This document shows, in pieces, positions 1,711 to 42,000 of a DNA stretch of 64,000 nucleotides (its first letter is position 1; each line of letters starts with the position of its first letter). The DNA lies in assembly GCA_051362555.1 (NCBI GenBank), contig CM120647.1, positions 2,728,001 through 2,792,000 on the forward strand. The letters are read 5' to 3'. The position numbers and the translations under genes were made by a program. The notes under the pieces were generated by a model, which saw only the letters and a list, made by a program, of their open reading frames with translations, did not search any database and was not told the origin of the DNA. The stretch is from Lingula anatina. Lineage: Eukaryota; Animalia; Brachiopoda.

Positions 1711-2193
1711 ACTGCTTTGAAAGTTCAAAATCATCAGAAATTGCAGAGTAAGTGAAGGAGATGCTGGACTGAAAAGATAGGAAAAAAGTCTATCTGCAGC
1801 AGTACACTTAGATCCAGTAGAAATGAGAGAGATCATCATCAAAGTGGTGTAAACTTTCTGAACTTGAAGAATGTGACAACTGAATGAGTTATCTAGGTAC
1901 CCACAATCAAGTGAGCTTTCATGGATATTCTGACTGTGTGATCGCATCGCCACATCAAGCTGGAGATGAAAGCAGAGGTAAGCAAGAGCTGAAACCTGAC
2001 AGCGAAGAAAGTGTTTTTATCAAGTTCTGTAGTAAGCTGCAAATGGCTGATAGAATTTAAGTGTAGGAATATAATTTTAAATAACAATAACTTTCAGCTT
2101 AGCTTTGGGCCTGGATGGATCTACAGGACGACAATATGTGCACATACTACCATACCTGAACATATAAATGTTAAGACATTTCTGTTTACTCAC

Positions 2194-2327
2194 CTGATTA
2201 TGCATTTCTGCAGCTGGTGAATAAGATCTTAATGATAATGAAAACTTGAGAAGGCCCAGTTGTAATTTGGAAGGAATAAGTTTTTCTGCTATGGACAGAA
2301 TCATCTCATACACTTCCTTAGGTTCTT
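2194..2327 (-). pseudogene. UGGT: UGGT duplicate exon 4
   Basis: 134 nt, AG/GT intact, EPKEVYEMILSIAEKLIPSKLQLGLLKFSLSLRSYSPAAEMHNQ (V to A vs the intact copy). Confidence 0.88.
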
Positions 2328-4619
2328 CTGAAAGGAAAAAACATGCTCATTAAATAATGCTCATCACTTTTCAACCCCATAGAGACCGTCACCCCATACA
2401 TGCGGTTCAGTTCACTCTTACCCCAAAGACCCAGAACCACATATAGTATGTGTATCATGGAAATATTGTTTTGTTCCTTTTTGAACAGTAAATTTATGAT
2501 CATTACGTTCCTTCAGATATGATTGTTGGCTCTTATTTGAGCTATCTTAGGGAATGTTAAAATGTATGAGAGAAGTCAGAAAAACCCGATTTTATAGATG
2601 TTTCATAAACTAGTGGCAAAATGGGGCAGCTTCTCACCACCTCAAATATAATACTAAATTCCAGATAATTTAAAAAACGTAAATGCTGAATTTTTCTGAG
2701 TACATTGATAACTCACATCACTTCATTCTGGTGAATTCATGTACATCTGGACACCAAAATGACACTCACTCAATGGACCTCAAGGACATGCATGTAGAAT
2801 GCTAGATATCACTTTTCCCTGTACATCCATAAGTTCCATTTTTCATGTAATAATGAGAACAATTCCATTTAACTTATTCCTGCACTGTTGCATACATTTT
2901 GACAGCAGTTATTCAATTTTAAGTAGATTATTCTCTGTCTAAAGGTTAGAATGGTTTAAACAAGGCAGCAAAGCTGTCAAATGTACAGACAAAAAACAGA
3001 AAATAAAGATGCAAAAAAGGTCATTTTGTCAATTTTGATGCAATAATAACCAAACAGACTGCATTGCCTACTGAAGCTGTATTTTAGTTCCATGTTTCTA
3101 TCCTGTCAGTTTGAGAACAGTAAGTGACATGATTTTCCTTAAATGGTCATCATGGAAGCAGTGCCCAAAATGGGGGTTTCTTCAAATTTTGATGCAATAT
3201 TACATAATGTTTAACAGCTTAATGACCATCAATTTTTAATTATAAAATATTTGTATCACAGATATTCAGAAAATGTGACTAGCAAAGGTCTTCAGGCCCA
3301 TGGAACTTCAAAGTCACGCCTTGATAATGCCAAAATGTAAACAAGACAGCACTGTTCTGAAATGGGTTTATTTCCATTTTTAACACTTTTTTAACATAAA
3401 ACAAAATAAACATTTTACTGCCATTTTTATATGTCCAACTAAGAAAATTGATGAGATGGGAAAAGTATCAATAGAACAGTGTTAAATGTCCAATTTCCTC
3501 CATTCTGAGATTCTGAACATAGTGGATGATTGAATCTGACAAACTGCAATGATATGAGTTTATTTCCATTTTTGACACTTTATTACACAATACATGATAA
3601 CAAGTTTACCATGTTTTTTACATAATCAACTAACAATGTTGTAAAGATGCAGGAAATATCAAACAAACACTTTTAGGCATCTTATTAGTTAAATAATGAG
3701 ACTGTTAACATGCCTAATAATTGAATCTGAGGAAATGTGAAAAAACAGTATAACTTCTTAAGTAATGGCCCGATTATGCTTATTTTCGAACTCAACCTGA
3801 GTTTTAGTAAGATTGACCACTCCTGTGAGTATAATTACAATTGGCAAATCCGTTTTTCTTATATTGTGTTATCAGTGTTGCATTTATATTGAAAATAGTG
3901 AAAAAACAGCATAAATTACCTAAAAGTGACCCGATCATGCTGATTTTCAAACTTGACCTGCGTATTATGAATATTCATCAGTTCTGTAAGTTTCAAGTCA
4001 AAAGGTAAAATGGTTTTCCACTTATCGTGTTATCGGTGCTGCATATATGCTGAAAAAAGTGAAACAAGACAGCACTGTTCTGAAATGGGTTTATTTCCAT
4101 TTTTAACACTTTTTTAACATAAAACAAAATAAACATTTTACTGCCATTTTTATATGACCAACTAAGAAAATTGATGAGATGGGAAAACTATCAATAGAAC
4201 AGTGTTAAATGTCCAATTTCCTCCATTCTGAGATTCTGAACATAGTGGATGATTGAATCTGACAAACTGCAATGATATGAGTTTATTTCCATTTTTGACA
4301 CTTTATTACACAATACATGATAACAAGTTTACCATGTTTTTTACATAATCAACTAACAATGTTGTAAAGATGCAGGAAATATCAAACAAACACTTTTAGG
4401 CATCTTATTAGTTAAATAATGAGACTGTTAACATGCCTAATAATTGAATCTGAAGACATGTGAAAAAACAGTATAACTTCTAAAATAATGGCCCGATTAT
4501 GCTGATTTTCGAACTCATCCTGCTTTTTAGTAAGATTGACCACTCCTGTGAGTATAATTACAATTGGCCAATCCGTTTTTCTTATATTGTGTTATCAGTG
4601 TTGCATTTATATTGAAAAT

Positions 4620-5790
4620 AGTGAAAAAACAGCATAAATTCCCTAAAAATGGCCCAATCATGCTGATTTTCAAACTTGACCTGCGTATTATGAATATTCA
4701 TCAGTTCTGTAAGTTTCAAGTCAAAAGGTAAAATGGTTTTCTACTTATCGTGTTATCGGTGCTGCATATATGCTGAAAAAAGTGAAAAAACAGCATAAAT
4801 TCCCTAAAAGTGACCCAATCATGCTGATTTTCGAACTCGACCTGCGTATTTTGAATATTCATCAGTTCTGTAAGTTTCAAGTCAAAAGGTAAAATGGTTT
4901 TCCACTTATAGTGTTATCGGTACTGCATATATGCTGAAAAAAGTGAAAAAACAGCATAAATTCCCTAAAAGTGACCCGATCATGCTGATTTTCGAACTTG
5001 ACCTGCGTATTATGAATATTCATCAGTTCTGTAAGTTTCAAGTCAAAAGGTAAAATGGTTTTCCACTTATCGTGTTATCGGTGCTGCATATATGCTGAAA
5101 AAAGTGAAAAAACAGCATAAATTCCCTAAAAGTGACCCGATCATGCTGATTTTCGAACTTGACCTGCGTATTATGAATATTCATCAGTTCTGCAAGTTTC
5201 AAGTCAAAAGGTAAAATGGTTTTTCACTTATCGTGTTATCGGTAAAAGTGCACGGCGACGACGGCGACGACGGCGACGACAGACGCAGATGATGGCTATA
5301 TGTACAGACACATCTGTGTCTGTACATAAAAACAGCATAAATTCCCTAAAAGTGACCCGATCATGCTGATTTTCGAACTTGACCTGCGTATTATGAATAT
5401 TCATCAGTTCTGTAAGTTTCAAGTTAAAAGGTAAAATGGTTTTCCACTTATCGTGTTATCGGTGCTGCATACATGCTGAAAAAAGTGAAAAAACAGCATA
5501 AATTCCCTAAAAGTGACCCGATCATGCTGATTTTCGAACTTGACCTGCGTATTATGAATATTCATCAGTTCTGTAAGTTTCAAGTCAAAAGGTAAAATGG
5601 TTTTCCACTTATCGTGTTATCGGTGCTGCATATATGCTGAAAAAAGTGAAAAAACAGCATAAATTCCCTAAAAGTGACCCGATCATGCTGATTTTCGAAC
5701 TTGACCTGCGTATTATAAATATTCATCATTTCTGCAAGTTTCAAGTCAAAAGGTAAAATGGTTTTCCACTTATCGTGTTATCGGTAAAAG
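4620..5790. repeat. 161-bp tandem repeat array inside family A
   Basis: CAGCATAAATTCCCTAAAAG recurs at 4791, 4952, 5113 and at 5494, 5655 (period 161); related units at 9490-9760, 17480-17900 and 46620-46920. Confidence 0.9.
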
Positions 5791-5863
5791 TGCACGGCGA
5801 CGACGACGGCGACGACAGATGCAGATGATGGCTATATGTACAGACACATCTGTGTCTGTACAT

Positions 5864-6574
5864 AATAATGCTTATAATAGCACTATCAGTCAACACTGAA
5901 TTTTAATCATGCACAACAGGTAAAATGGTCAATAACATGAGCGGACCCAGAGATATTCTCTGACAGTATTCCAAAGTATCTATTTTGATCCATCCTCCAT
6001 TTTGATGGTCTTCCAACAGAAGAAAAAATAGATACCAGGCAATATAAACTTAATAACCTGACTGTCTTCCGGAAGTCCCAGAAGATGGTCTCAATCTACC
6101 CTTTCAATAAGATTACAGTTTCAGGACCATGAGAGTTCAAATTCACATGATGAAAGTCTCAATATTTGAAAAATGATGACAGTGCATAAAATAATATTAC
6201 ATAAGTAACATAATTTTTAAAGACATAAAAAACAATACAACTGCTTATGTGGAAATACAGAAATGTCAGAGCCTCAGGCGGATGAGAGTTAAAAGTCACA
6301 AATGCAAGTGTTTGAGAAAAAATTATAAAGGAAAACATAACAAAACCAGAAAAGCACTCCGAGAGTGCAGACCTCTGCCAAGGTAGCAATTGTTGATTAT
6401 TATTGATTTTTGTTCTCTTTGGGCCACTTCTGACAGTTCCTGAAAATTTCAGCAAAATCGGTCCATAACTTTTTGAGTTATGTTGATGACAAACAGGGGT
6501 GAAAATATAACCTCCTTGGCAGAGGTAAATATAATTCCAATGAAGCTGCTATTCAAACTTTTAATCTTTCAGTT

Positions 6575-6621
<47 letters not shown>

Positions 6622-7530
6622 TTGTTTGCAATATTAAACAAAATTTACCTGCATAATTATCACTGCTTCCTTATTATTAATCTAGCAGAGAGCTTAACCT
6701 ATGGGAGTTTACAGGGAAATATCAACAAGTGTGCTTTATGTAGCCTATCAATTAGGCAAATTACATTTTATATCTGAAATTAGCGAAGTGATACCCAAGG
6801 GAAATTTATAGACTGACCCTCTCAAAGGTCTTTCAGGCCCATAAGTCACAACTCAAGAAGAGCACAAAACAATAATGCACAAAATAGGAGACTACCACTT
6901 CTGATGCAATAATACATTATGTTTAACTGCACAGTCAACATCAAATTTTAATTTTGCACAACAGGTAACACCAACGAAAGTAAAAGCATAAGGCTTCAGG
7001 CCCATCAGAGTTCAAGTTTATACTTAGAAAGTGCCAGAATGAGAAAAATGAAATTTCACACAAAATTGCATTAAATTCAATAATAAATGATAACCCAATT
7101 GACCTGGCTTTCTAATTTGAACTGCATGCCAATCCTAAAAATCATACTCTTAAGTTAAATATAATAATAAATAACACAGTTTTCTTTTCATAATGTTTGC
7201 AGTAGCAGTGCAAAAAGATTATTGTCAATTTTGATGTAACATTACATAATAAATTATAGAATAATTATCACCAATTTTTGATTATTGACTATAAATAGCA
7301 TGAACATGTAGAAAATTTGATTACCATCCGGCTTCATGTCCATGGGAGCTCCGAGTCCCACAGTGAATATGCCAAAAAGATAATGAATATTTCACTCAAA
7401 TGTATAACTTCCAGAAAAAGAAGCCCATTAGACTGCTTATTCATCTCGGGCTGCATTTTAGTCCTGTGTTTCTTTTTTGAAAGCTTGACAATAATAAGTA
7501 ACACGGTTTTCCCATCATGGTCATCATGGC
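5864..7530. repeat. About 1.65 kb direct repeat of 12445-14100 (family A internal region)
   Basis: Near-identical sequence; duplicated spurious ORFs 6159/12738 and 7317/13887. Confidence 0.85.
6344..6530 (-). mobile_element. Short HINE-like element (family C) nested in family A; second copy at 12923-13109
   Basis: Minus strand reads TTACCTCTGCCAAGGAGG ... CCTTGGCAGAGGT (subTIR), hairpin GCACTC..GAGTGC, then TTTTCT(A/G)GTT. Confidence 0.6.
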
Positions 7531-10500
7531 AGATGTGGATGATTGAATCTGACAAACTGCAATGATAAGAGTTTATTTCCGTTTTGGACACTTGATTACA
7601 CAATACATGATAACAAGCTTACCATCATTTTTACATAATCAACTAACAATGTTGTAAAGATGCAGGAAATATCAAACAAACACTTTTACGTATCTTATTA
7701 GTTCAATAATGAGACTGTTAACATGCCTAAGAATTGAATCTGAGGAAATTTGAAAAAACAGTACAACTTCTAAAATAATGGCCCGATAACGCTGATTTTC
7801 GAAACTCAACCTGCATTTTTGTAAGATTGACCACTCCTGTGAGTATAATGACAATTGGCTAAGCTGTTTTTCTTATATTGTGTTATTAATGTTGCATATA
7901 TGTTGAAAAAAGTGAAAAAACAGCATAAAAAATAAAAGAAAATGTAAAATAAAACATAACAAAAAATACCAATAAAGCTGCTATTCAAACTTTTAATCTA
8001 GCTGTACAATTACTAACATGATATGAATAACCCTATTGAGTTTGAGAATAATAAGGCACTGTTATCCATCTTTAGCATTAATGTAAGCGTTACACAAAAT
8101 TTTTTTTGTAAACTTATTTTCCATATTAAATAACATTTACCTGCATAATAATCATCGATTCCTAATTATGTGACACAGTTAAGAAAGCTAAACCGATGGG
8201 ACTTTACAATGAAATCTCAATGTGTGTTTATGTAATCTCATTAATGCCCACTTGAAAATTAATTAAGCAAATTATTTTATAACCCTGAAATAACTTGAAA
8301 ATCAATTAAGCAAATTATTTTATAACCCTGAATTAACTGCCTACTATCCATATACATTTATTGCACCAAATAGCACTGTACTGCATTGCTTTCAAAACAG
8401 ATAACAATTACGATGGTTTTCCAACACAAGCTGCACTTCAGTCTTTTCAGTAAGGTTGATTATCATAAGTAACATGGTTTTCCCTTAATCGCTATCCTGG
8501 CAGCAGTGTCCAAAATAGGGTTTTCATGCAATATAACATAATACTTAACAACATAATGACCATCAATTTTTTTATAAAAAAATAAAAGTATCATGGATAT
8601 TCAGAAAATGTGATATGGAAAGGTCTCCAAGGACATGGAAGTTAGGGTCACACTTTCAAAATGCCAAAATGTTAACAAGAGATAACTGTACTGAAATGAT
8701 TTTCTTTCCATTTTCAACACCTTTTTTACAAAAACCATAATCAATTAACTGTCATTTTTAAATGATCAACTAGGAAAATTGTTGACATAGGAAAAATATC
8801 AATAGAACAATTTATAATGTCCAATTAGCTCCATTTGGAGATTCTGAACATAGTGAATGATTGAATCTGACGAACTGCCTTTCCATTTTTGATACTTTAT
8901 TACACAATGCACGATAATAGCTTTACCGTCATTTTTATATAATCAACTAAAAATATTGTTAAGAAGCAGAAAATGTTAAAACAACACTTTTACATATCCA
9001 ATTAGTGCCGTAATGAGACTGTTAACATGCTTAAGAATTAAATCTGAAGGAAAACCACTTATATACAAAAAGGCTAATAACTTCATCAAAACTTAACTGA
9101 TCAAGCTTATTTTCAAACTTGATCTGTATACTGGTCAGATTGATCACTCCTGTGAGTTGCAAGACAAAAGGCTGATGGGTTTTCCTTAAAATGCGTTATC
9201 AGTGTTGCATGTATGCTGAATAAAGGGAAAAAAAAAGCATTACTTTTGTAAAAATAGTCCAATCATGCCAATTTTCAAACTTTACCTGCGTATTATAAAT
9301 ATTCACCAGTTCTGTAAATTTCAATCCAAAAGGAAAAACATTTTTACACTTATCATGTTATCGGTGTTATAAAAATGCTGAAAAAATTGAAAAAAAAAAA
9401 AAAAAAAAACAAACAAACAAACAAACAAAAAAAAACAGGATAAGGTAGAATGGTTTTCCACTTATCGTGTTATCGGGGTTGCATATATGCTGAAAAAAGT
9501 GAAAAAACAGCATAAATTCCCTAAAAATGACCCGATCATGCCGATTTTCGAACTTGACCTGCGTATTATGAATATTCATCAGTTCTGTAACTTTCAAGCC
9601 AAAAGGTAAAATGGTTTTTCACTTATCGTGTTATCGGTGCTGCATATATGCTGAAAAAAGTGAAAAAACAGCATAAATTCCCTAAAATTGACCCGATCAT
9701 GCTGATTTTCGAACTTGACCTGCGTATTATGAATATTCATCAGTTCTGTAGGTTTCATACCAGTTTTCCATTTATCGACGGCGACGACAGACGCAGATGA
9801 TGGCTATATGTACAGACACATCTGTGTCTGTACATAAAAACAATAAAAATAAAATTGCTAAGAGAGTTACTTGCAGAATTGCAAAATTAGACTGATTTTC
9901 AAATTCAAGTTGTATTTTTGTCCTATGTTTCTTTTCTGTTAGTTGAGAAAAGTTAATGACATGGTTTTCATTAAATGGTTTAAAGTTTAAAGCCAAAAGG
10001 TGAACCGGTTTTCCACTTATGGGGCTGCCAAAATGAAAAATTCCCACGCAGGTGACTTCGTCTGTACATAAATACAGGGCGCTTTTTAAAATTTCCCACC
10101 TTTAATAATTATGTAGAGGATGTATTACAGACATCTCGCTGTGTACAGATTTCTCTTTCAGAACTTATCATGGAGCAGTTGGGCCCCTGGGCCCATGGTA
10201 TGTAGGTACACATTTCACAATCTGTTACGCTCCGCTCTTTTACTCCTTTTCATAAAATTGTTAGGGTGACTCCCGTTAACGCCCAACATAAATACATAAT
10301 TATTAAACATAGCAAATAATTTTACTTTTCAAATATATTGAATTTATAAAAAGGTCAAACAGCATTCCAGTGACTGGGAATATCATGCAATGCAGATAGC
10401 AACTGCTGATTGATCACTGATGAGGGTCACTCACTGATCCTTAAACTGAAGTATATTCTTGGCAATTCATAAAACAATCTTTTTAATAGCATGTAGTTCA

Positions 10501-10615
10501 TTCTTTGAAGTATATGTAGTTCATTAAAATAGGCAATTAAACCAGTAGACACCACCGCGTATAAAAGATTAGATGCAAAATGAAATCACATCATTCAGAT
10601 AAACTGTATACTTAC

Positions 10616-10701
10616 TATCTTGCATGTCAGCAGTGTTGGCCTCTGCCACAGTATCCACAAAAGCCCACAGCATGGCATTACTCTCCTTGGCCAGAAACTC
10701 G
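10616..10701 (-). pseudogene. UGGT: UGGT duplicate exon 3
   Basis: 86 nt, AG/GT intact, EFLAKESNAMLWAFVDTVAEANTADMQD (F to L vs the intact copy). Confidence 0.88.
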
Positions 10702-10789
10702 CTGAAATGATATAGTCATTTTCATTTAGCTTATGCAGGTTGTGAAAATTTAGTAGATAATAAAAGCCTCATGTTCAGATTTTAATTGT

Positions 10790-10791
<2 letters not shown>

Positions 10792-10844
<53 letters not shown>
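10792..10844. repeat. (AT)n microsatellite
   Basis: About 26 units, against about 6 at the paralogous site near 37396; other AT tracts at about 6577, 36028, 48704 and 61467. Confidence 0.95.
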
Positions 10845-10845
<1 letters not shown>

Positions 10846-11968
10846 CTTCATAGTAAAACTAAGTCAACCCAAAACCTTCAGACTATCTTTCACTATGAGC
10901 TAACTTTAAGTGACTGTCTTTGCTTATAAGACCTCAGGCACATGCTCACAGGACCCATACCAAAATAAGATCATCTGTTTAAGGCCCCACTATGCTATGC
11001 AGTTACCAAGGGCCAATTTTCAATATTCCTTAAAACTTATATAAATAAACAAGTTATTGAGACATACTTTAGTGATAAAGGTAGGGGTTGCTATGTAAAG
11101 TCAACATTGATGATGTGATGCAATTATCTTTTTCATAATCTCAGATGTTAGTTGGGGTTATATAAAGAAACATTTGCTTTTTTTAAACAAAGTGCTTTCA
11201 CATATAAAATCCTTTTTTTTTTGAAAGCTTTGCTTTTGTATCCCTTCAATACACACATCGACTTTCAGAGACCATTCTTAAGTCCTCAACTTCCGGTGTT
11301 AACATCGATCCCGTTCTCACTAGGAAATTTTATATCGCGATTTAAGTTTACATCGATAGAATCCACCTCTCGAGTAGGATTAATTTGAATCGCGATTTGG
11401 CGTCTCTACTGCGTTCACACTAGAAACTTTACATCAATAGAATCGCGATTTGGCACTAATCGCGATTGAAAGTGTCTCGTTTGAATGGGGTTATAAAATA
11501 CTTGGGTAAAGTCAGGAAAGCTTTGTGGTCTATGACTCTGTTCATGTTGCTGTGTGAGGGGGCATGCCAGACAAATTAAGCTGATTAAATTGACTGTACC
11601 TAAGCAAAATTCCCACTGAGATAGATCAATCCAGCTAGTATGATAACTTCAATTCTGAACAAGGCCTATGACAGAAATATATTAGAACTAGCAAGTGTTC
11701 TATATCTAACAAATATTCAGACATAGGAAAAATTTTGAGAACTGAAGGTCCAGATGACCTGTGCTACAAAAGATCTGCAGTTGCTCCCAATTCTGTGCTG
11801 GTCAAACTAAGTATCTTATTTCTGTTAGACTATGTTTAGCCTCTGGCATATCTGCAAGTGGGGATGACCTGTCAGACAATGATTTTCCCCATGTCTTTAT
11901 AATTTATTATTGGTTCTTATAAATGCAGTCCATGAACTCATTGCCAAGCATGGTCATTCAGGCTATAC

Positions 11969-12095
11969 CTAGTTTCTAGCATCAGTGGTGTCGACTCCCA
12001 TTTGGCATCTAGTGACACAGAGACAAATTTGGACTTGACAAATCTACTTCACTGCAGGCATGCAGCACCAAGATAACTAACAAAACAAGCCCTGC
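11969..12095 (-). pseudogene. UGGT: UGGT duplicate exon 2 with +2 frameshift
   Basis: 127 nt vs 125 nt; GTAGATTTGTCAAGTCC vs GTAGATGCCAAGTCC gives ...SEVDLSSPNLSLCH* with stop at 12011-12009. Confidence 0.88.
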
Positions 12096-15000
12096 CTGCA
12101 AAAAAATGAAATGGGAATTAATTTTTATTACTTTAATTTCTAATTCTACACCATGACAGATAAAAACATTTAAATGTACAGACCTGTATTTAAATCTGTA
12201 TACAGACTGCATCAATAGTATAATAAAGTAAATGACAAGTAAATGCTTAAATGAAAAGCACCCCCTCCCATTGAAAAGAAAATCATTTTCAAAACATGGG
12301 GCACCAAAATGAATGATGATTACCTCCGAAAAGTATGTGACATTTTTCAAAAATTTTGTCCCTGCAAAGCTGTCAAATGTACAGACAAAAAACAGAAAAT
12401 AAAGATGCAAAATAGGTCATTTTGTCAATTTTGATGCAATAATAAATAATGCTTATAATAGCACTGTCAGTCAACACTGAATTTTAATCATGCACAACAG
12501 GTAAAATGGTCAATAACATGAGCGGACCCAGAGATATTTTCTGACAGTATTCCAAAGTATCTATTTTGATCCATCCTCCATTTTGTTGGTCTTCCAACAG
12601 AAGAAAAAATAGATACCAGGCAATATAAACTTAATAACCTGACTGTCTTCCGGAAGACCCAGAAGATGGTCTCAATCTACCCTTTCAATAAGATTACAGT
12701 TTCAGGACCATGAGTTTAAATTCACATGATGAAAGTCTCAATATTTGAAAAATGATGACAGTGCATAAAATAATATTACATAAGTAACATAATTTTTAAA
12801 GACATAAAAAACAATACAACTGCTTATGTGGAAATACAGAAATGTCAGAGCCTCAGGCGGATGAGAGTTAAAAGTCACAAATGCAAGTGTTTGAGAAAAA
12901 ATTATAAAGGAAAACATAACAAAACTAGAAAAGTGCTCCGAGAGTGCAGACCTCTGCCAAGGTAGCAATTGTTAATTATTATTGATTATTGTCCTCTTTG
13001 GCCCACTTCTGACAGTTCCTGAAAATTTCAGCAAAATCGGTCCATAACTTTTTGAGTTATGTTGATGACAAACAGGGGTGAAAATATAACCTCCTTGGCA
13101 GAGGTAAATATAATTCCAATGAAGCTGCTATTCAAACTTTTAATCTTTGAGTTTGATATATATATATTAAAAACTTATTTGCAATATTAAACAAAATTCA
13201 CCTGCATAATTATCACTGCTTCCTTATTATTAATCTAGCAGAGAGCTTAACCTATGGGAGTTTACAGGGAAATATCAACAAGTGTGCTTTATGTAATCTC
13301 ATTTAATGGCCGATTAATTAGGCAAATTATTTTTTAATACTGAAATTAGCTAAGTGATACCCAAGGGAAATTTACAGACTGACCCTCTCAAAGGTCTTTC
13401 AGGCCCATAAGTCACAACTTAAGAAAAGCACAAAACAATAATGCACAAAAAAGGAGACTACCAATTCCGATGCAATAATACATAATGTTTAACTGCACAG
13501 TCAACATCAAATTTTAATTTTGCACAACAGGTAACACCAACGAAAGTAAAAGCATAAGGCTTCAGGCCCATCAGAGTTCAAGTTTATACTTAGAAAGTGC
13601 CAGAATGAGAAAAATGAAATTTCACACAAAATTGCATAAAATTCAATAATAAATGATACGTAACCCAATTGACCTGGCTTTCTAATTTGAACTGCATGCC
13701 AATCCTAAAAATCATACTCATAAGTTAAATATAATAATAAATAACACAGTTTTCTTTTCATAATGTTTGCAGTAGCAGTGCAAAAAGATTATTGTCAATT
13801 TTGATGTAACATTACATAATAAATTATAGAATAATTATCACCAATGTTTGATTATTGACTATAAATAGCATGAACATGTAGAAAATTTGATTACCATCCG
13901 GCTTCATGTCCATGGGAGCTCAGAGTCCCACAATGAATATGCCAAAAAGATAATGAATATTTCACTAAAATGTAAAACTTCCAGAAAAAGAAGCCAATTA
14001 GACTGCTTTTCCAACTCGGGCTGCATTTTAGTCCTGTGTTTCTTTTTTGAAAGTTTGACAATCATAAGTAACACGGTTTTCCCATAATGGTCATCATGGC
14101 AGAAGCACCAAATATTGTGTTTTCTTCTATTTTGATGCAACATTACATAATGCTTAACAGCATAATACATCAATTTTTAATAATAAAATATATGTGTCAT
14201 GGATTTTCAGAAAATGTGACTAGCATGGGTCTTCAAGCCCGTGGAGGTTCTAAGTCGCACCTTGAAAATGCTAAGAAGTGAAAAATTAAATTTTCACAAA
14301 AAACTGTTAAATTGCCAGAAAAATTTACCAAACAGACTGCATTGCCTACTGAAGCTGTATGTTAGACCCATGTTTCTTTCCTGTAAGTTTGAGAACAGTA
14401 AGTGACATGATTTCCCTTCAATGATCATCATAGGAGCAGTGCCCAAAACAGGTTTTTTTTTTCAAATTTTGATGCAACATTACATAATGTTTAACAGCAT
14501 AATGACCATCAAATGTTATTAATAAAATATTAGTAACATGGACATTCAGAAAACATGACAAGCAAAGGTCTTCACGATCATGGAACTTCAAAGTCACACC
14601 TTAAAAATGCCAACATGTGAAAAAATAAATTTTCACAAAAAACTGTTTAACTGCCAAAAAAAGTTACCAAACAGACTGCATTGCCTACTGAAGCTGTATT
14701 TTAGTCCCATGTTTCTTTCCTGTAAGTTTGAGAACAGTAAGTGACATGATTTTCCTTAAATGGTTATCATGGGAGCAGTGCCCAAAATAGGGGTTTCTTC
14801 ACATTTTGATGCAATATCACATAATGTTTAACAGCATAATGACCATCAATTTTTAATTATAAAATATTAGTATCACAGATATTCAGAAAATGTGACTAGC
14901 AAAGGTCTTCAGGCCCATGGAACTTCAAAGTCACATCTTGAAAATGCCAAAATGTAAACAAGACAGCACTGTTCTGAAATGGGTTTATTTTCGTTTTTAA

Positions 15001-15387
15001 CACTTTTTTAACATAAAACAAAATAAACATTTTACTGCCATTTTTTTATGACCAACTAAGAAAATTGATGAGATGAGAAAAGTATCAATAGAACAGTGTT
15101 AAATGTCCAATTTCCTCCATTCTGAGATTCTGAACATAGTGGATGATTGAATCTGACAAACTGCAATGATACGAGTTATTTCCGTTTTTGACACTTGATT
15201 ACACAATACATGATAACAAGTTTACCATCATGTTTACATAATCAACTAACAATGTTGTAAAGATGCAGGAAATGTCAAACAAACACTTTTACGTATCTTA
15301 TTACTTAAATAATAAGGCTATTAACATGCCTAAGAATTAAATCTGAGGAAATTTGAGGAAATGTGAAAAAACAGCATAACTTATAAA

Positions 15388-17481: not shown

Positions 17482-18162
17482 CGGCCTGATTATGCTGATT
17501 TTCGAACTTGACCTGTGTTTTAGTAAGATTGATTACTCCTGTGAGTTTCATGAAAACAAGTCTATTGGTTTTCCTTGAAATGTGTTTACAGTGTTGCATA
17601 TATGCTAAAAAGTGAAAAAAACAGCATAACAACTAAAATAGTGGCCCGATCATGCCGATTTTCGAACTTGATCTGTGTTTTAGTAAGATTGATTACTCCT
17701 GTGAGTTTCATGACAACAGGCCTATCGGTTTTCCTTGAAATGTGTTAACAGTGTTGCATATATGCTGAAAAATGAAAAAACAGCATAACTTCTACAATAA
17801 TGGCCCGATCATGCTGATTTTCGAACTTGACCTGCGTTTTATGAATATTCATCAGCTCTGTAAATATAAAGCCAAAAAGTAAAACTGCCCTCCACTTATC
17901 GTGTTAACAAGGAAAGTGCACGGCGCCGACATCGGCGAGGACAGACGCAGATGATGGCAATATGTACAGACACATCTGTGTCTGTACATAAAAATGAATG
18001 TTACAATAAGGCAAATCCATCCTCTTTTGCAAGAAAGTGCTCCCATTGTTATCAAACACATTGGAATGTTTTGAAAGACATTCAAAGATGATAACCCATT
18101 GTTGTTATCCAGTATCATGGATGTGCTGTTATATACATATATATATATACATATATATATAT

Positions 18163-18193
<31 letters not shown>

Positions 18194-31350: not shown

Positions 31351-34270
31351 CCAATTTGACATCTTCTTTTTTCCAATTGTGGTAGTTGAGCCTGACCAAT
31401 CGCAAGAAACAGTTTTCGCAAGTCCTGACCAATTCCAGCATTTTCAAAGTACTGCATAGGGTCTAGAGCCGATTTAGTAGTAGTTGTGGTAGTTGAGCTG
31501 GACCAATCGATAGACTGGGAGAAAAACCCCAGGCTCCCTCTGGGATTCGAACTTGGGACGCTTGCACTCCAAGCCACTGCTCTACCAACTGAGCTACCTA
31601 GCCAGAGTCAAAATCCGGCAGCTGCTACAGGGGCTAGAGCCGATTTCGACAGCATCGACATTCCGATAGTGATTGTTGAGCCTGACCTATTGCGACACAC
31701 CGATTGTGCTAGTCCTGACCAATTCCAGCATTTTTAAAGTACTACAAAGGGACTACAGCCGATTTCGACAGCATCGACATTTCGATTGTGGTAGTTGAGC
31801 AGAACCAATTGCGACAAACAGATTTCGCGAGTCCTGACCAATTCCAGCATTTTTAAAGTACTACATAGGGACTAGAGCCGATTTCGACAGCATCAACACT
31901 CCGATTATGGAAGTTGAGTTGGACCAATCGATAGAATGGAAGAAAAACCCCAGGCTCCCTCTGGGATTCGAACCTGGGACTCTTGCACACCAAGCCACTG
32001 CTCTACCAACTGAGCTACCTAGCCAGAGTCAAAATCCGGCAGCTGCTACAGGGGCTAGAACCGATTTCGACATCATCGACATTCCGATTGTGGTAGTTGA
32101 GCCGAACCAATCGCACCAAACAGATTTCGTGAGTCCTGACCAATTTAAAGTACCACAAAGGGACTAGAGCCAATTTCGACAGCATCAACACTGCAATTGT
32201 GGTAGTTGAGCTGGACCAATGGATAAACTGATAGAAAAACCCCAGGCTCCCTCTGGGATTCGAACCTGGAACTCTTGCACACCAAGCCACTGCTCTACCA
32301 ACTGAGCTACCTAGCCAGAGTCAAAATCCGACAGTTGCTACAGGTGCTAGAGCCGATTTCGACATCATCGACATTCCGATTGTGGTAGTTGAGCAGAACC
32401 AATCGCGACAAACAGATTTCGCGAGTCTTGACCAATTCCAGCATTTTTAAAGGGACTTCAGCCGATTTCGACAGCATCGACATTCCGATTGTGGTAGTTG
32501 CGCCAAACCAATCGCGACAAACAGATTGCGCTAGTCCTGATCAATTCCAGCATTTTTAAAGTACTACATAGGGACTAGAGCCAATTTCGACAGCATCAAC
32601 ACTCCGATTGTGGTAGTAGAGCTGGACCAATTGATAGGCTGGGAGAAAAAACCCAGGCTCCCTCTGGGATTCGAACCTGGGACTCTTGCACACCAAGCCA
32701 TTGCTCTACCAACTGAGCTACCTAGCCAGAGTCAAAATCCGACAGTTGCTACAGGGGCTAGAGCCGATTTCGACATCATCGATATTCCGATAGTGATTGT
32801 TGAACCTGACCAATCGCGACACACCGATTTCGCTAGTCCTGACCAATTCCAGCATTTTTAAAGTACTACAAAGGGACTAGCGCTGATTTCGACAGCATCG
32901 ACATTCTGATTGTGGTAGTTGAGCTGAACCAATCGCAACAAACAGATTTTGCGAGTCCTGACCAATTTAAAGTACCACAAAAGGACTAGAGCCAATTTCG
33001 ACAGCATCGACACTGCGATTGTGGTAGTTGAGCTGGACCAATGGATAGACTGATAGAAAAACCCCAGGCTCCCTCTGGGATTCGAACCTGGGACTCTTGC
33101 ACACCAAGCCACTGCTCTACCAACTGAGCTACCTAGCCAGAGTCAAAATCCGGCAGCTGCTACAGGGGCTAGAGCCGATTTCGACATCATCGACATTCCG
33201 ATTGTGGTAGTTGAGCGGAACCAATCGCGCCAAACAGATTTCGCGAGTCCTGACCAATTCCAGCATTTTTAAAGGGACTACAGCCGATTTCGACAGCATC
33301 GACATTCCGATTGTGGTAGTTGAGCCGAACCAATCGCGACAAACAGATTTCGCGAGTCCTGACCAATTCCAGCATTTTTAAAGTATTACATAGGGACTAG
33401 AGCCAATTTCGACAGCATCGACACTCTGATTGTGGTGGTTGAGCTGGACCAATGGATAGGTCTGGGAGAAAAACCCCAGGCTCCCTCTGGGATTCGAACC
33501 TGGGACTCTTGCACACCAAGCCACTGCTCTACCAACTGAGCTACCTAGCCAGAGTCAAAATCCGGCAGCTGCTACAGGGGCTAGAGCCGATTTCGACATC
33601 ATCGACATTCCGATTGTGGTAGTTGAGCGGAACCAATCGCGCCAAACAGATTTCGCAAGTCCTGACCAATTCCAGCATTTTTAAAGGGACTAGAGCCGAT
33701 TTCGACAGCATCGACATTCCGATTGTGGTAGTTGAGCCAAACCAATCGCGACAAAAAGATTTCGCGAGTCCTGACCAATTCCAGCATTTTTAAAGTATTA
33801 CATAGGGACTAGAGCCAATTTCGACAGCATCGACACTCTGATTGTGGTAGTTGAGCCGAACCAATCGCGACACACAGATTGCGCTAGTCTTGGCCAATTT
33901 GCAGTATTTTTTAAAGTACTACAAAGGGACTAGAGCTGATTTCGACAGCATCGACACTCTGATTGTGGTAGTTGAGCTGGACCAATCGATAGGCTGGGAG
34001 AAAAACCCCAGGCTCCCTGTGGGATTCGAACCTGGGACTCTTTCACACCAAGCCACTGCTCTACCAACTGAGCTACCTAGCCAGAGTCAAAATCCAGCAG
34101 CTGCTACAGGGGCTAGAGCCTAATTTAACATCTTCGATTTTCCAATTGTGGTAGTTGAGCCTGAACTATTGCGACACATAGATTGGGCTGGTCCTGACCA
34201 ATTCCAGCATTTTTAAAGTACTACAAAGGGACTAAACCAATTTCGACAGCATCGATATTCCGATTGTGGC
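31350..34270 (-). repeat. Inverted tandem array with 7 tRNA-derived units (right arm)
   Basis: Units at 31532-31603, 31953-32024, 32245-32316, 32656-32727, 33067-33138, 33479-33550 and 34011-34082; spacing mostly about 411 bp. Confidence 0.92.
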
Positions 34271-34479
34271 AGCTCAACTACCACAATCTGAATGTAGATG
34301 CTGTGGAAATCGGCTCTAGTCACTTTAATTTGAAAGTCAAAGATGTTATAATTGGATCTAGCCCCTGTAGTGGCTGGCAAGTGTTAGCCCTTGCTGGGTA
34401 GCTCAGTTGATAGAGCAGTCGCACCGTTCGTTTGCATTAGTTTGGGGTTCGTCTTCTGGTCGGGCCCGGTCTCCCCCCC

Positions 34480-34887
34480 CCCCCCCCCCCCCCATCGCTC
34501 TCATTACTGTAATTGTCGCAATTTCGGTGTGTGTAAAGCGTTGCGATTGGTCCCAGGTCATTTAATAAGATGATTGCATAACCGGTATCGTCGTCGATCT
34601 GCGGCAATAGTGTAAACATTATTCTTTAATGTCAGGTTGGTGGCGGTGGCAATATATTGGTGCAGATAAATGGTGTAAGCGTGGCCAATTGGTTCAAAAT
34701 CTAGGACGGGGCTGATCTTTACAAATCAATGGGAATTAGAATTTCTAGTATTAATGGGGTGGGGTATTTCTGTTTGTAAACCCGACTGTTTGTTTATCTC
34801 AACTCTCCTCAAGAAGGAGTCCGAGTCTGCGCAGATGCGTTTCCGGTGCATTTCCAATTCTCAGACGACACGAAGATTCCGGCTAAA
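34480..34887 (+). promoter_or_regulatory. Putative UGGT promoter / 5' UTR
   Basis: CpG-richer segment upstream of ATG|GTAAG with CCAAT boxes, ETS-like TTCCGG, and NRF1-like TGCGCAGATGCG. Confidence 0.55.
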
Positions 34888-34890
34888 ATG
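34888..34890 (+). CDS. UGGT: UGGT exon 1 coding part (ATG only)
   Basis: AAAATG|GTAAGC; phase 0 join to AGLVLLV.. gives a signal peptide. Confidence 0.7.
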
Positions 34891-36026
34891 GTAAGCAGCA
34901 TACGTGTTTATTATTTGTGAAAGATTTTTGTAAGTCTACTGCTCAGCTTATTTGCCTGATTGTGCGATTGTGTGTGAGTTCGTGGTCGAGTTTCCGTCCG
35001 GTGCTAGAGGCCACAATTTAAGAGATTTTTGCTTCAAAAATTTTCAGTTTGCAGATAGAATAATTGTTAGAATGAAGTGATTTTCTTCATAATCTTGTTT
35101 AGTGTTTTTTCGTTACAAAATTCCCGAAGATATGAAATTTATTGAAGTTTGCGATGGAGGCTGTGTGAATGACTCAAAGACAGTGATTGTTGACCACGCA
35201 CTAGTAGTACTCTGTTAACTGTACATGTATGTGTGATGAACACGGGTTTGTTATGATCAATTAAAGCCAAGTAGATCCAAGACGGTAACCTTTATTGCCT
35301 TATGCTTTTCTCTTCTGACCCTTGAGCTTATTTGGCCTTCTTATATACAGTTTGCTCTCCAAAACATCAAACATTGGACCCTTGAGCAGGCCCCAAACCC
35401 CACACCAAGGGGCGATGAGCAGCTTCACAACTGAGGCCTGTCATTTTGGACCCCCCCCCCACCCCCTTCAAATAATCCTGGATCCACCCGTGCCCATTAT
35501 GTAATGATGATGATGATACCTTGATACTTCACGTGCCTTCACAGATTAAGAAAATTGTCATTGTCAAAGAAGGCAGGACATTTACTTTGGAAGTGTAGAT
35601 TTTTAAACTTGTTTTCACATTCTGTATTTTGAGCAACTTGTCATTCAAATTCAAGAACGCTAACTATCAGTTTTTGGATAAATGCTGTTTCATGATATCA
35701 AAAGTTTGAGAAATGACTTGTTTTCATTGATGTCTGATCCGTGGTAGGCACTAGGACCCGATATACAGATACTGGGCCCTTATTAGCTAGTGAGTAACGG
35801 GAGTGCAACAGACCTGTCACCATGAAACGCACTAGTATGTGATATGCCTGTATATGGAATACAGCACGGCCGAGTCTTTTGTTCTGCTGCTAGCTGTGGT
35901 TTAAATGAACATATAGCAAAATATGATGCATATTCTAAGTGGAAAGTGTGCTCATAAGATTGGCGCCAAGTTGAAATATTGATGTCCGTGTCTCATTGTT
36001 GTTGGAACTTATAATTTTGGATGTGA

Positions 36027-36084
<58 letters not shown>

Positions 36085-39000
36085 CTTTTCATTAATATTC
36101 CTTATTTCAACATGTGGTGACTTTGATCAGTGTTTCTGCCTTCCAGATAAATTGCATTGGGAATTTTATTACTATTAATATTCTAATTTTAATTTTCATT
36201 TTTATTTTCCTATTAATTAATAGATCATAACCCAAATCTTAAATTTTGTTCTTTTGTCCATTTGTTCATTTAATTTTCATTTAAGCATTTGCTTGTCATT
36301 TACTTTATTATATATTGATGCAGTCTGTATACAGATTTAAATACAGATCTGTACATTTGAATGTTCTTATCTGTCATGGTGTAGAATTAGAAATTAAAGT
36401 AATAAAAATTAATTCCCATTTCATTTTTTTGCAGGCAGGGCTTGTTTTGTTAGTTATCTTGGTGCTGCATGCCTGCAGTGAAGTAGATGCCAAGTCCAAA
36501 TTTGTCTCTGTGTCACTAGATGCCAAATGGGAGTCGACACCACTGATGCTAGAAACTAGGTATAGCCTGCTTGGCAATGAGTTCATGTACTGCATTTATA
36601 AGAACCAATTACAAAATATTCAGACATGGGGAAACTCATTGTCTGATAGGTCATCGTCGCTTGCAGATATGTCAGAGGCTAAACATAGACTAACACAAAT
36701 AAGATACTTAGTTTGACCAGCACAGAATTGGGAGCAACTGCATATCTTTTGTAGTACAGATCCTCTGGACCTTCAGTTCTCAAAATTTTTCCTATGTCTG
36801 AATATTTGTTAGATATAGAACACTTGCTAGTTCTAACATATTTCTGTCATAGGCCTTGTTCAGAATTGAAGTTATCGCACTAGCTGGATTGATCTATCTC
36901 AGTGGGAATTTTGCTTAGGTACAGTCAATTTAATCAGCTTAATTTGTCTGGCACACCCCCTCACACAGCAACATGAACAGAGTCATAGACCACAAAGCTT
37001 TCCTGACTTTACCCAAGTATTTTTTGTTAGGATGGGACGTGCCCGACAAGTGAGCTTATTACATTGACTGCACCTTGGTGAGAATCCATCCTCACTGAGA
37101 CAGATTGATCCTGCTAATTTTTTTTTTTTTTTGTGTACAGACACAAATGTGTCTGTACATATAGCCGTCACCTGCGTCTGTCGTCGTGTCTTTTTTTATA
37201 TAAGTTTTAAGGAATATGGAAAATTGGCCCTTGAGAACTGCATAGCATAGTGGGGCCTTAAACAGATGATCTTATTTTGGTATGGGTCCTGTGAGCATGT
37301 GCCTGAGGTCTTATAAGCAAAGACAGTCACTTAGAATTAGCTCATAGTGAAAGATAGTCTGAAGGTTTTGGGTTGACTTAGTTTTACTATGAAGCTATAT
37401 ATATATATGTGGACAATTAAAATCTGAACATGAGGCTTTTATTATCAACTAAATTTTCACAACCTGCATAAGCTAAATGAAAATGACTATATCATTTCAG
37501 CGAGTTTCTGGCCAAAGAGAGTAATGCCATGTTCTGGGCTTTTGTGGATACTGTGGCAGAGGCCAACACTGCTGACATGCAAGATAGTAAGTATACAGTT
37601 TATCTGAATGATGTGATTTCATTTTGCATGTAATCTTTTATACGCAGTGGTTTCTACTGGTTTAACTGAATGAATGCAGTGGTTTCTACTGGTTAAACTG
37701 AATGAACTACATGCTATTAAAAAGATTGTTTTATGAATTGCCAAGAATATACTTCAGCTTAAGGATCAGTGACACTGAGTGACCCTCATCAGTGATCAAT
37801 CGGCAGTTTCTATCTGCATTGCATGATATTCCCAGTCACTGGAATGCTGTTAGAAGTCACCTGCGTTCGTCATCATGGGCATTTTTGGCAGCATTGCCAA
37901 TGCACTTTCAGTGATAACCCCTAAGTGGAAAACCGTTTCACCTTTTGGCTTAAAACTTACAGAACTGATGCATATTCAGAAAATGTAGATGTGGTTTTAA
38001 AATCAGCATGATTGGTTCAAGGAAAACCGAGAGGCCTTTTGTTTTGAAACTCACAGGAGTGATCAATCTTACTGAAATACAGGTTGAGTTTGAAAATCAT
38101 ATCAGACCATAATTGATGATTATGCTGTTAAGCATTATGTTTTATTGTATGAAAATTGAAGAAAACCTATTTTGGACATTGCCATTATGGTGACCATTTC
38201 AGGAAAACTTGCTGCTTATGATTCTCAAACTTACATTGAATTTTGATGGGCCTGAAGACCTATGCTAATCACATCTAACATGTATGTTACCTGCAGTGCA
38301 TAGTTAAAAATTGTTGGCTCTAAAGCATTATGTAATAATTAAAGGAAACCCTGTTTTGGGCACTGCCACCATAGTGACCATTTAATTAGTACCACCAGTG
38401 TGTATGCTGGCTGTACTTGTGGTTTTAGTCCAGACCTGTCTCGTAAAGCTCCCTGGCTCCGCAGTTGGGTACCGGAAACAAGTCACCGTTACCGCTTCTC
38501 CTCCTAGACCACAAGGACCTGTGTCCCCATATCTTGGATTTAGGTCACATATAATCTCAACTTAAGCACCCTGGGTTTTTTGCCTCAGACTGTGCATTGG
38601 CCTGGGCGTGACGCTTTTTTAAATGCACCCTTGACAAAATTTTTGAAAATTCAATGCTAAATATCTCCCAAACCAAAGGAATTATGGGAAAAAGTACTTC
38701 AGAAGTCTGACCGAAAGTCATATGTGGAGATTCCAAATATGCCCTTGGATTTGACTTTTGATCTGCTTTTCACCATGAACTGAATTTTGCATATTTTCTG
38801 ACCTTTATATCTCCAAAATTGGCAAAGAAATGCACAAAGTTACTATTGAACTTGTATAGGAAGTCATATACTGTGACCTTGAAATTGACCTTTGACCTAC
38901 TTTTTCCCCACGGACTGAAATTTGCATATTTCTTGCCCCTCATATCTTCAAAACTAGCAGAGATATGCCCAGTGTTGTCCCTAGGTTTTCTCTTTTGTCA

Positions 39001-42000
39001 GCAAGAGAAACTGATGCAACACAGATAACACATTTCAAGGAAAACCAATAGGCCTCTTGTCTAGAAAATCACAGGAGTGATCAATGTTAGGAAAATGCAA
39101 GTCAATTTGAACATCTGCTTGATTGGACCATTTTTACAGTTATGTTTTTTCACATCTTTTTCTTTTTGAATATTTTGAGAACTCTTGATTATTGCATTTT
39201 ATAGAGCTTGGCAAGCAAAAGAATGGTGATGGTGTCCCTTTTTTATTTGTTTTCCATGCAAGTGCGCTTACTCCAGCTGGTGGTACAATTTCCAGAGGCG
39301 GTATCACCCTTCTGATCCTCTAGTGAAAACCATGTCATTAACACTTCTCAACTTACAGAAAAGAAACATGGGACAAAAATACAGCTTGAATTTGAAAATC
39401 AGTCTAATTTTGCAATTCTGCAAGTAATTCTCTGAGCAATTTTATTTTTATGGTATAGATAAAGAACGAGGCGCTGAGCTTTACGAGAAATAGAGCTGAT
39501 AATTGGCGAGGCGAAGCCGAGACAATTATCTGCTCTATTTCTTGTAAAGCTCAGCGCCGAGTGCTTTATCTGGCTTAAAGCAAGATTAATTAACCCTGTG
39601 CACTGGTGCGTGGAACGCATTCGTGAATGCTGTGACTTTACACAAAGTAAAGCATGGCCCAACCTATTGTCTTTTGACAGGAGAGTGCTTTAAGGTTTTT
39701 TAAACCATTCTTACCTTTAGACAGAGAATAATCTACTTAAAATTGAATAACTGCTGTCAAAATGTATGCAACAGTGCAGGAATAAGTTAAATTAAATGGA
39801 ATTGTTCTCATTATTACATGAAAAATGGAACTTATGGATGTACAGGGAAAAGTGATATCTAGCATTCTACATGCATGTCCTTGAGGTCCATTGAGTGAGT
39901 GTCATTTTGGTGTCCAGATGTACATGAATTCACCAGAATGAAGTGATGTGAGTTATCAATGTACTCAGAAAAATTCAGCGAGACCGTTCTTTATGTTTTT
40001 AAATTATCTGGAATTTAGTATTATATTTGAGGTGGTGAGAAGCTGCCCCATTTTACCACTAGTTTATGAAACATCTATAAAATCAGGGTTTTCTGACTTC
40101 TCTCATACATTTTAACATTCCCTAAGATAGCTCAAATAAGAGCCAACAATCATATCTGAAGGAACGTAATGATCATGAATTTACTGTTCAAAAAGGAACA
40201 AAACAATATTTCCATGATACACATACTATATGTGGTTCTGGGTCTTTGGGGTAAGAGTGAACTGAACCGCATGTATGGGGTGACGGTCTCTATGGGGTTG
40301 AAAAGTGATGAGCATTATTTAATGAGCATGTTTTTTCCTTTCAGAAGAACCTAAGGAAGTGTATGAGATGATTCTGTCCATAGCAGAAAAACTTATTCCT
40401 TCCAAATTACAACTGGGCCTTCTCAAGTTTTCATTATCATTAAGATCTTATTCACCAGCTGTAGAAATGCATAATCAGGTGAGTAAACAGAAATGTCTTA
40501 ACATTTATATGTTCAGGTATGGTAGTACGTGCACATATTGTCGTCCTGTAGATCCATCCAGGCCTAATTGAGGAAAGAACTTCTGAATTTTCTTTCAAAC
40601 AAACATAATTTTAAAACATCTAACAACCATTATCAGTCAAACTTAAACTTATTAACTAACATCCAGTTATTTTTGTGATTTACTGGGTGTGGTATGCCCC
40701 CCCCCCCTCCAGAACCTAAAGCGTTCTCCAATCCCCCAGAATGTAAAATGTTAGACTGCCACATTAAGGATTTCTTTGAACCTACATCACAGTTCTACCA
40801 ATGAGTTTTAACAGGGTTGTTCAGCCAATTTATAACTTGTTTTCCATCAAACTTGGTTGTTGAATAACTGTTATAGCTTGATCTTTTCAAAGGGGGGAAT
40901 TTCAGGTACTGTGTTTTACAGTTACTGTATTGCTTAAAATTTGAATCTTCCGATTCAGTGGTAGGAACAGAACTGAAAAGCAGTCCACCTTATAATTCTT
41001 TTGTACACAGAATGTTGTTTACCACAAATGCTGGTGATTCCAAAATTATGTATCTGAAGTCTTGATAATTTTTTCCCTATTGAAAAGGTCAAGTTATTAC
41101 TAAATTGTATGTGCAGTAAATTGTTAACTTTAAAACTCAGCTTTGTAAAGTAATAAATGAAAAATATTATATCCATGCCATTTTGGTGGTAAAACTGCCT
41201 TAAAATGGAATCTCATTTGAAGAATTTTTATCCTGTTAAAGGGTTATGTTGGTTTTGTTCTTAGGATCCAGGTATAGGTATATACATATTTTATAAACTT
41301 TACTGCTGTATACTTTTTAATTGAATTTTCTGTGTTCAGGTGGCCAAGGATAATAACCCTCCCCGTGATTGTGATACATTTGTCGACGTCCAGGGCAAGG
41401 TCACGTGTGATAGCAAGGAAATGAAACGACTCATTAACAGTGCCACTCAAAGGTACTTGCAAATTGGTAGACAATAAGATGTTGTGAAGTTGTGGCATGA
41501 ACCATTTTAAAACAAAATAGACAAGAGACACTATGTCTGAAAAGAGGGTAAGCCTTATAAGGTATTTTATTTCCTCATCCACCTGTTTAGCTTCACAATG
41601 TGTAAAATAATGCAGCATATTGACCCTTTTCATCTTTTCCATGTTGGAAATTGCATTGTGGGAAAGTGAGTCCTATGCTATGTGGAAACACTTACAGCAG
41701 TGCTGAAAAACATGCCTGGGTTTACGTGCTGTGTGTCCCGTGGCTACAATAACAGTAAGAGAGATCGACACATGGTTTTTATAAGTTCCCAACAAACTCG
41801 TTAAAATGAAAAATATGGGTAGACAACATCGGTAGAAAGAAAAGAAAATTTAGCAGGTTTGGATCAAGAGCAGGAGACCGTGTTTGTGCCGAACATTTCG
41901 AAGGTTGGAAGAAAACCTATAATATAAGAAGATCAATGGTGTTTAAATAAAAACCATTAAAGTTTAGTTAATCAACGGATCGAGCGAAGACTCGACAAAT

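Follow-up and report, generated by a model that had tools for sequence, protein, structure and literature searches.

Fold-back inverted duplications have been described from the human germline (PMC3907307, Hermetz et al. 2014) and from yeast (PMC10622511, Al-Zain et al. 2023), and in the accessible parts of these two reports they combine a head-to-head copy, a short unpaired spacer with short inverted sequences, and a second junction to other DNA. A head-to-head copy and a second junction, together with a candidate spacer, were also found in a stretch of 64,000 nucleotides of the brachiopod Lingula anatina (GenBank assembly GCA_051362555.1, contig CM120647.1, positions 2,728,001 to 2,792,000 of the forward strand; this whole stretch is referred to as the window), in which UGGT, an ER quality-control gene, is accompanied by a second, truncated copy. 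In contrast to the human and yeast cases, the point of folding is inside a satellite, and the copy, which is present in several animals, has diverged by about 4%. With a probability of roughly 75%, the locus consists of an intact UGGT gene and a head-to-head copy of its promoter and exons 1–4 across a satellite strand switch, which also occurs in other animals, contains nothing of the gene past intron 4 and probably represents a pseudogene in decay, derived from a fold-back or template switch in the satellite.

Unprocessed pseudogenes from partial duplications, which occur in segmental duplications, likewise keep a promoter and 5' exons with their introns, lack the 3' part, carry a frameshift and replacements, gain transposons and occasionally possess a cryptic terminal exon; only the inverted, satellite-centred geometry of the Lingula case is less usual. 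The palindromes of mammalian sex chromosomes also have inverted gene-bearing arms and possible arm-to-arm conversion, to which the low divergence of the distal block of the Lingula arms (1.3%) would correspond. Their arm identity is above 99%, whereas the Lingula arms are 96% alike where they can be aligned, are of unequal length and include one truncated copy. Satellite macro-dyads of Tribolium resemble the locus in the orientation switch, the degenerate unit at the inversion site and the kilobase-scale dyad, all of which were found here; according to the accessible part of that report (PMC13081366) they comprise thousands of conserved sites in putative (peri)centromeres, whereas a single site was observed in Lingula, where the symmetry continues into a housekeeping gene. 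The UGGT1/UGGT2 duplications of vertebrates and Caenorhabditis also result in a second UGGT-derived locus per genome, but those are functional duplicates that have retained the catalytic domain at the C-terminus, as far as the available text of PMC9907099 describes them, whereas the Lingula copy lacks this domain and 92% of the protein. On testable features, the Lingula case belongs with inverted partial gene duplications decaying to pseudogenes. This kind of rearrangement is already known, and the present instance of it is real.

Self-BLAST of the window gave six inverted, collinear single-copy blocks, which span 2105–21002 on the left and 34475–40567 on the right (bit score of the weakest block 139):

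2105–2963 / 40567–39696, inverted: mirrored block 1
10355–11049 / 37854–37191, inverted: mirrored block 2
11495–12257 / 37023–36274, inverted: mirrored block 3
19520–19857 / 36035–35656, inverted: mirrored block 4
19855–19938 / 35283–35200, inverted: mirrored block 5
20306–21002 / 35198–34475, inverted: mirrored block 6

The UGGT promoter, exons 1–4, a tRNA-like array and a GA-rich satellite are mirrored about an axis at 28755–28775. The initial annotation, made from the sequence alone, had described this mirroring, with an axis near 28755, and it was confirmed by the self-BLAST blocks, a motif search (8 of 8 splice and start motifs of exons 1–4 present once per strand, the two exon-5 motifs on the right side only) and the sign change of GC skew and AT skew at about 28.75 kb, where the satellite switches strand. 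The sharp end of homology in intron 4, at GGCC 2108 versus 40564, was likewise borne out. The assembled sequence represents a head-to-head inverted duplicated segment, in which the ATGs of the two copies lie 14,302 bp apart and the promoters face outward, so that no antisense overlap is expected. The description as a 38-kb palindrome held for the mirrored order and overstated the symmetry. The left arm measures 26.6 kb and the right arm 11.8 kb, mirrored single-copy DNA makes up 6910 of 38463 bases, the remainder being repeats and private insertions, and perfect symmetry at the centre is limited to 2 bp; the structure is a patchy mirror rather than a continuous palindrome. Two repeat mosaics account for most of the difference in arm length:

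2964–10354, no strand: left-private repeat mosaic in intron 3, 7.4 kb
12258–19519, no strand: left-private repeat mosaic in intron 1, 7.3 kb

The right copy is the intact gene. Its exon 6 matches the UGGT of L. anatina (P0001, 1526 aa) at 100%, as one of two matches among five candidates, and its exons 1–4 are identical to residues 1–116 of P0001 (116/116). Seventeen UGGT exons in the window, as implied earlier, were confirmed by exon–protein matching and reach residue 597. P0001 carries PF18400–18404 and PF06427 above the Pfam cut-off, i.e. thioredoxin-like, UDP-g_GGTase and GT24 families; via this protein the right copy is a UGGT (GT24) with thioredoxin-like and catalytic domains in one frame, the catalytic exons lying beyond the window. 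The functional gene is unaffected by the extra copy.

34475–35198, plus strand: intact UGGT promoter region and exon 1, ATG 34888–34890 (self-BLAST, protein match)
36435–36559, plus strand: exon 2 (protein match)
37501–37586, plus strand: exon 3 (protein match; 16 RNA reads splice exon 3 to exon 4)
40345–40478, plus strand: exon 4 (protein match, RNA, Pfam)
40565–63754, plus strand: single-copy remainder with exons 5–17 (protein match to P0001 residue 597; read contigs for 40565–41615)

Whether the left arm represents a second copy is decided at its outer end:

2108–2111, no strand: outer junction GGCC, where homology ends within intron 4, at 86 bp past the exon 4 donor
1783–2107, no strand: low-copy flank joined to the duplicated block (contig depth 33–136, versus thousands over most of 1–1782)

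As an alternative it had been proposed that two haplotypes of one UGGT locus were misjoined through the satellite, in which case the left arm would be an allele with an insertion, an inversion breakpoint or a deletion in intron 4. The window covers only 2.1 kb past the junction, for which reason an insertion allele had to be excluded, and the two 7-kb insertions in left introns make a third one plausible. Five of 21 listed public runs were examined, namely the DNA runs X1, X2, X4 and X6 (four samples, three studies), one of which may derive from the window's own source sample, and the RNA run X12. A junction contig leading from the low-copy flank across 2108 was present in all four DNA runs; each stops at 2137, at a graph branch that lies 30 letters inside the shared block, and the same branch occurs on the right arm, where contigs begin at 40535 in 3/3 DNA runs. 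Letters of the left flank recur, among the matches listed, as a loose end behind 40564 in X1 and X2. Both paths (the junction contig and a shared contig starting at 2108) are present in 4/4 runs, which argues against misjoined haplotypes. In X2, a single contig (40535–41615, depth 34.7) runs unbroken through exon 5. Since its depth resembles that of the left path (33.3), the left path does not re-enter the gene ahead of exon 5; a re-entry branch would be present in the case of an insertion or inversion. Furthermore, X2 contains three versions of the shared block (depths 43.2, 14.2 and 15.6), which overlap at 39797–39877. In terms of contig depth, which is a poor and rough measure of copy number, the shared block was deeper than the exon-5 region in 3/3 runs (ratios 1.20 in X1, 1.44–1.63 in X2 and 1.12–1.34 in X4). 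Loss of Uggt1 is embryonic lethal in the mouse, as stated in the accessible text of PMC9907099, and a UGGT null allele in every sampled animal is therefore unlikely.

The ratio of left junction depth to exon-5 depth was 0.37 (X1), 0.47 (X4), 0.96 (X2) and 0.88 (X6, with a baseline scaled from a high-copy repeat). These values hint at a copy-number polymorphism, in which some samples would carry a single copy and others two; it is not claimed, as diverged alleles or pooled samples fit too. In the flank itself, X1 has a second contig at 1783–1881 (depth about 64) that does not reach the junction, and X2 holds a version of 1708–1879 with 10 differences; these alternatives could be a second allele or the flank before the duplication.

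A second UGGT locus was found in a separately annotated Lingula assembly. Left exon 4 as query matched two proteins among nine candidates, P0001 and P0003. The latter (XP_013397541.1, "UGGT 1-like, partial") has exactly 116 aa, corresponding to exons 1–4, and lies on a different contig (118,607) from the full-length P0001 (707,382). P0003 differs from P0001 by A2T, E44V, M69R, P109Q and V111A, shares only V111A with the left copy of the window and has no frameshift. Because of these different lesions it is a separate allele, and the window does not stem from that sequence. The C-terminal tail of P0005, a cluster mate of P0003 that may derive from a transcript or from a prediction, maps to 2036–1950 of the window on the minus strand, past the junction; residues 148–179 match window 2045–1950 in 31 of 32 positions. 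Hence, a further assembled animal also has exons 1–4 attached to this flank, in addition to the full-length gene. This evidence is stronger than that from the sequencing runs.

The divergence of the arms was compared with allelic variation. Scattered substitutions, a frameshift and private insertions between the arms had been noted before, and all three were recovered: over 3368 aligned positions, the pooled mirrored blocks show 125 substitutions (3.7%) together with 26 gaps, left exon 2 carries a +2 frameshift, and the two 7-kb mosaics are private to the left arm. Five of the six blocks diverge by 3.4–8.9% (4.5% pooled), and the distal block (2105–2963 vs 39696–40567) by 1.3% (p = 3e-6 against the other five). 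As allelic yardstick, the window and the X1 intron-4 contig differ by 11 substitutions in 919 bp (about 1.2%), and the five blocks lie above this value (Fisher p = 5e-7); the published heterozygosity of Lingula is 1.6% in the accessible part of PMC4595640. Unlike the arms of a haplotig, only one of six blocks is at the allelic level. The low divergence of the distal block would fit arm-to-arm conversion as well as a two-step origin, and V111A lies in this block, yet escaped conversion.

The misjoining of two haplotypes is contradicted by the junction contigs, the unbroken X2 contig, the depth and the separate partial locus (P0003/P0005), and is hardly probable at all. A haplotig with a rejoining path and no excess depth was not observed, X4 being the weakest case; depth ratios, junction contigs and the second annotated locus instead indicate an extra copy of the mirrored segment. 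This supports the earlier suggestion of a real, persistent inverted partial duplication.

The centre of the mirrored region is composed as follows:

21002–24659, plus strand: left tandem array of eight tRNA-like units (A box, B box, T run)
24660–28754, plus strand: left GA-rich satellite, 77% purine on the plus strand
28755–28775, no strand: axis and strand switch, 21-nt unpaired spacer
28776–31350, minus strand: right satellite, inverted, most degenerate beside the axis
31351–34272, minus strand: right tandem array of seven tRNA-like units (A box search)
34270–34475, plus strand: small inverted piece private to the right arm and absent from the left, with one degenerate tRNA-like unit (34399) in opposite orientation at the promoter end of the right array

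As far as this assembly goes, the two copies are very probably adjacent in inverted orientation. The truncated copy could also be real and located elsewhere, its adjacency being an artefact of two loci misjoined through their satellites. The axis lies inside 6.7 kb of satellite, where joins are error-prone, and the palindrome is that of the assembled sequence. The window contains no N, which suggests long reads, and a HiFi assembly of L. anatina has been described (PMC13121700, accessible part). A chimeric fold-back read or a repeat-overlap join would presumably leave a near-identical centre, and the centre is asymmetric: there is no exact overlap at the axis, and the longest exact inter-arm match at the tested lengths (120 bp) is located away from it. 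The best stem has 13 of 14 pairs closing a 21-nt loop, and the two sides align in register over about 120 bp. The asymmetry weighs against an artefact, as does the right satellite bin nearest the axis, which shares only 8% of its 21-mers and is the most degenerate, like an old inversion site. Among satellite 31-mers, the left side shares 0.71 with itself and 0.16 with the other arm, the right side 0.63 and 0.48; the arms have orthologous end units and an orthologous boundary between array and satellite. A misjoin is, on balance, unlikely.

Besides the roughness of contig depth, several points weigh against a real, adjacent fold-back copy. The junction contigs hold 30 letters of the shared side, one below the 31-letter bridging rule. 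In X4, the left and right paths (78 + 85) add up to approximately the depth of the exon-5 region (167), which taken by itself would suit a single allele per path, and the 1.3% of the distal block equals the allelic level (p = 1.0); both would also fit misjoined haplotypes. At the V111A site, all four contig sets have the letter of the right arm and no other, and contigs drop variants. At the axis, the in-register match tied for second among the eight satellite windows listed, so that it is compatible with fold-back priming, no more. Finally, the two copies lie on different contigs of the annotated assembly, as a misjoin would predict; this neither confirms nor denies adjacency, and a contig break at a 13-kb repeat tract would be expected in a short-read assembly.

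The mirrored tRNA-like arrays noted before are present, but their units are not tRNA genes: ARAGORN found none, and no Rfam tRNA match occurred in 20000–35200. The five Rfam matches in this range were all sub-threshold miRNA hairpins at the axis, which were rejected, as scores far below gathering merely reflect the hairpin. The 15 tandem units possess an A box, a B box (within one mismatch in 13 of 15) and a T run. Their 82-nt tRNA-like core diverges by 0.036 in comparison to 0.10–0.11 in the flanks and is about three times more conserved, with a slight bias because the units were found by their A boxes. TFIIIC sites can serve as chromatin barriers, and the array between satellite and housekeeping promoter could be a cluster of Pol III RNAs or a TFIIIC barrier. 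The GGCC shared by the junctions was rejected as a signal, since it is common in the window (100 sites); at the axis it is produced by AGGGC joined to CTTTT of the satellite.

The left copy comprises the following features:

20306–21002, minus strand: promoter region and exon 1, ATG 20586–20584
11969–12095, minus strand: exon 2, +2 frameshift, stop after 29 codons
10616–10701, minus strand: exon 3, F54L and one synonymous change
2194–2327, minus strand: exon 4, V111A (Pfam Thioredoxin_12, E = 1.3e-9)
1896–2036 (end approximate), minus strand: cryptic terminal exon in the flank past the junction, AG acceptor ending at 2037

All splice sites and the promoter region are kept, yet the copy carries the frameshift and the two replacements. 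It has neither an intact frame nor the catalytic domain, its counterpart in the annotated assembly ends at 116 aa, and less than half of the TRXL1 domain (Pfam 35–218) is retained. No UGGT coding remnant was found in 1–2107 (tblastn, E ≤ 1). The allele of the window would yield a 29-residue peptide, and its transcript would be a likely target of nonsense-mediated decay; the other known allele would yield about 145 residues, which include part of one thioredoxin-like domain and lack the catalytic domain. The truncated copy is likely a decaying pseudogene. As truncated alleles accumulate replacements and a frameshift while the intact copy has none, this pattern against an invariant intact protein points to relaxed selection. 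In X12 (about 6% of the run read; 39 reads on 39696–41615), exon 4 reached a depth of about 13–15. No left-copy letter was seen at a minimum of three reads and no loose end from exon 4 to the flank among the matches listed, which says nothing firm on expression of the truncated copy.

The retained promoter region and splice sites would also suit a young chimeric gene of exons 1–4 and the cryptic exon, which encodes a secreted peptide of about 145 residues with a present or emerging function, the window allele being null. The cryptic acceptor is in phase with exon 4, the intron of 157 nt has its splice sites, and the frame is open in P0005. The two alleles, however, carry five and two replacements plus the frameshift, the intact copy none; four replaced residues (E44, F54, P109, V111) are also conserved in a rodent UGGT (P0002), the stop differs between the alleles (29 codons of the cryptic exon in P0005, 47 in the window), and the domain is incomplete. 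Such a gene is very improbable. A wider version, in which a satellite-born palindrome still segregates, a chimeric gene is in the making, animals that carry the open allele secrete a client-binding fragment, and the fragment, the array with Pol III boxes and the satellite dyad vary in copy number, may be considered, but is also quite improbable.

The pseudogene is likely about as old as the allelic variation of the species or somewhat older. One change shared by the truncated alleles versus several private ones would make the duplication slightly older than the allele split; these few sites suggest that it arose shortly before the two truncated alleles separated, near the depth of the species' polymorphism.

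Given a real palindrome, its origin by fold-back or template switching in the polypurine satellite, followed by a switch in intron 4, is somewhat favoured among the possible mechanisms. Polypurine tracts stall replication forks. A fork or break in the 77% purine satellite may have stalled and turned back on itself; satellite, array and exons 1–4 would then have been copied in reverse, until a second switch in intron 4 led onto the flank at 2107. Two junctions were found, each reversing direction relative to the intact gene. The asymmetric centre, the arm divergence of about 4% and the 7-kb insertions make long hairpins unlikely, and their prevention would have allowed persistence.

The locus might instead be the relic of a breakage–fusion–bridge cycle, in which a break in a subtelomeric satellite folded back and the resulting dicentric broke in intron 4 and captured a segment of another chromosome. 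Coming from the left, the G-rich strand leads up to the axis and the C-rich strand follows, which is the polarity of an end-to-end fusion, and fold-back dicentrics were resolved by translocation in human and yeast (PMC3907307, PMC10622511; accessible parts). Head-to-head TTAGGG/CCCTAA arrays, as at a telomere–telomere fusion, were not found: the TTAGGG dimer is absent from the whole window, and TTAGGG and CCCTAA are absent between 10.3 and 37.9 kb. In addition, with about 4% divergence the event is recent, and passage through a dicentric chromosome would upset the karyotype. Such a relic is most improbable.

As assembled, the locus is a germline inverted duplication with a satellite strand switch at its centre. 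It has persisted in a wild marine invertebrate, and its independent alleles allow age and decay to be read. The stray RefSeq model XP_013397541.1 is explained as the truncated copy; UGGT biology is unchanged, as the working gene is intact. Mirrored segments of this kind should not be purged as haplotigs by default. In a search that left out most subscription journals, no literature naming both Lingula and UGGT was found, and none among those listed on satellites or palindromes of Lingula named L. anatina; three text supplements of PMC13121700 do not mention heterozygosity, UGGT, contig N50 or satellite in the parts accessible.

The two left mosaics share direct copies (5864–7533 / 12445–14103, 94.7% over 1.7 kb; 3049–3756 / 14666–15382, 93.7% over 0.7 kb), which on their similarity are an apparent internal duplication within the left arm. 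An element with 253-bp terminal inverted repeats (93%) at 18189–19472 surrounds a decayed open reading frame (ORF, 19014–19295), which has no Pfam match and presumably resembles a Penelope-type endonuclease tail. Intron 1 of the left copy also contains a private MITE-like insertion with 14-bp terminal inverted repeats (19939–20305). Beyond the junction, very high-copy short elements (611–955 and 1626–1711; summed contig depth up to about 1e6) are nested in a longer mid-copy repeat over most of 1–1600.

On the right side, UGGT intron 5 contains an element with 39-bp terminal inverted repeats (85%) at 41603–43230, and a sequence near 41715 may be a THAP-like remnant. A decayed ORF at 47552–47917 with a weak Baculo_FP match (E = 0.0044, below cut-off) is probably the remnant of a retroelement ORF1. 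A G-rich 19-bp minisatellite with 13.8 copies lies in a further UGGT intron at 59414–59676.

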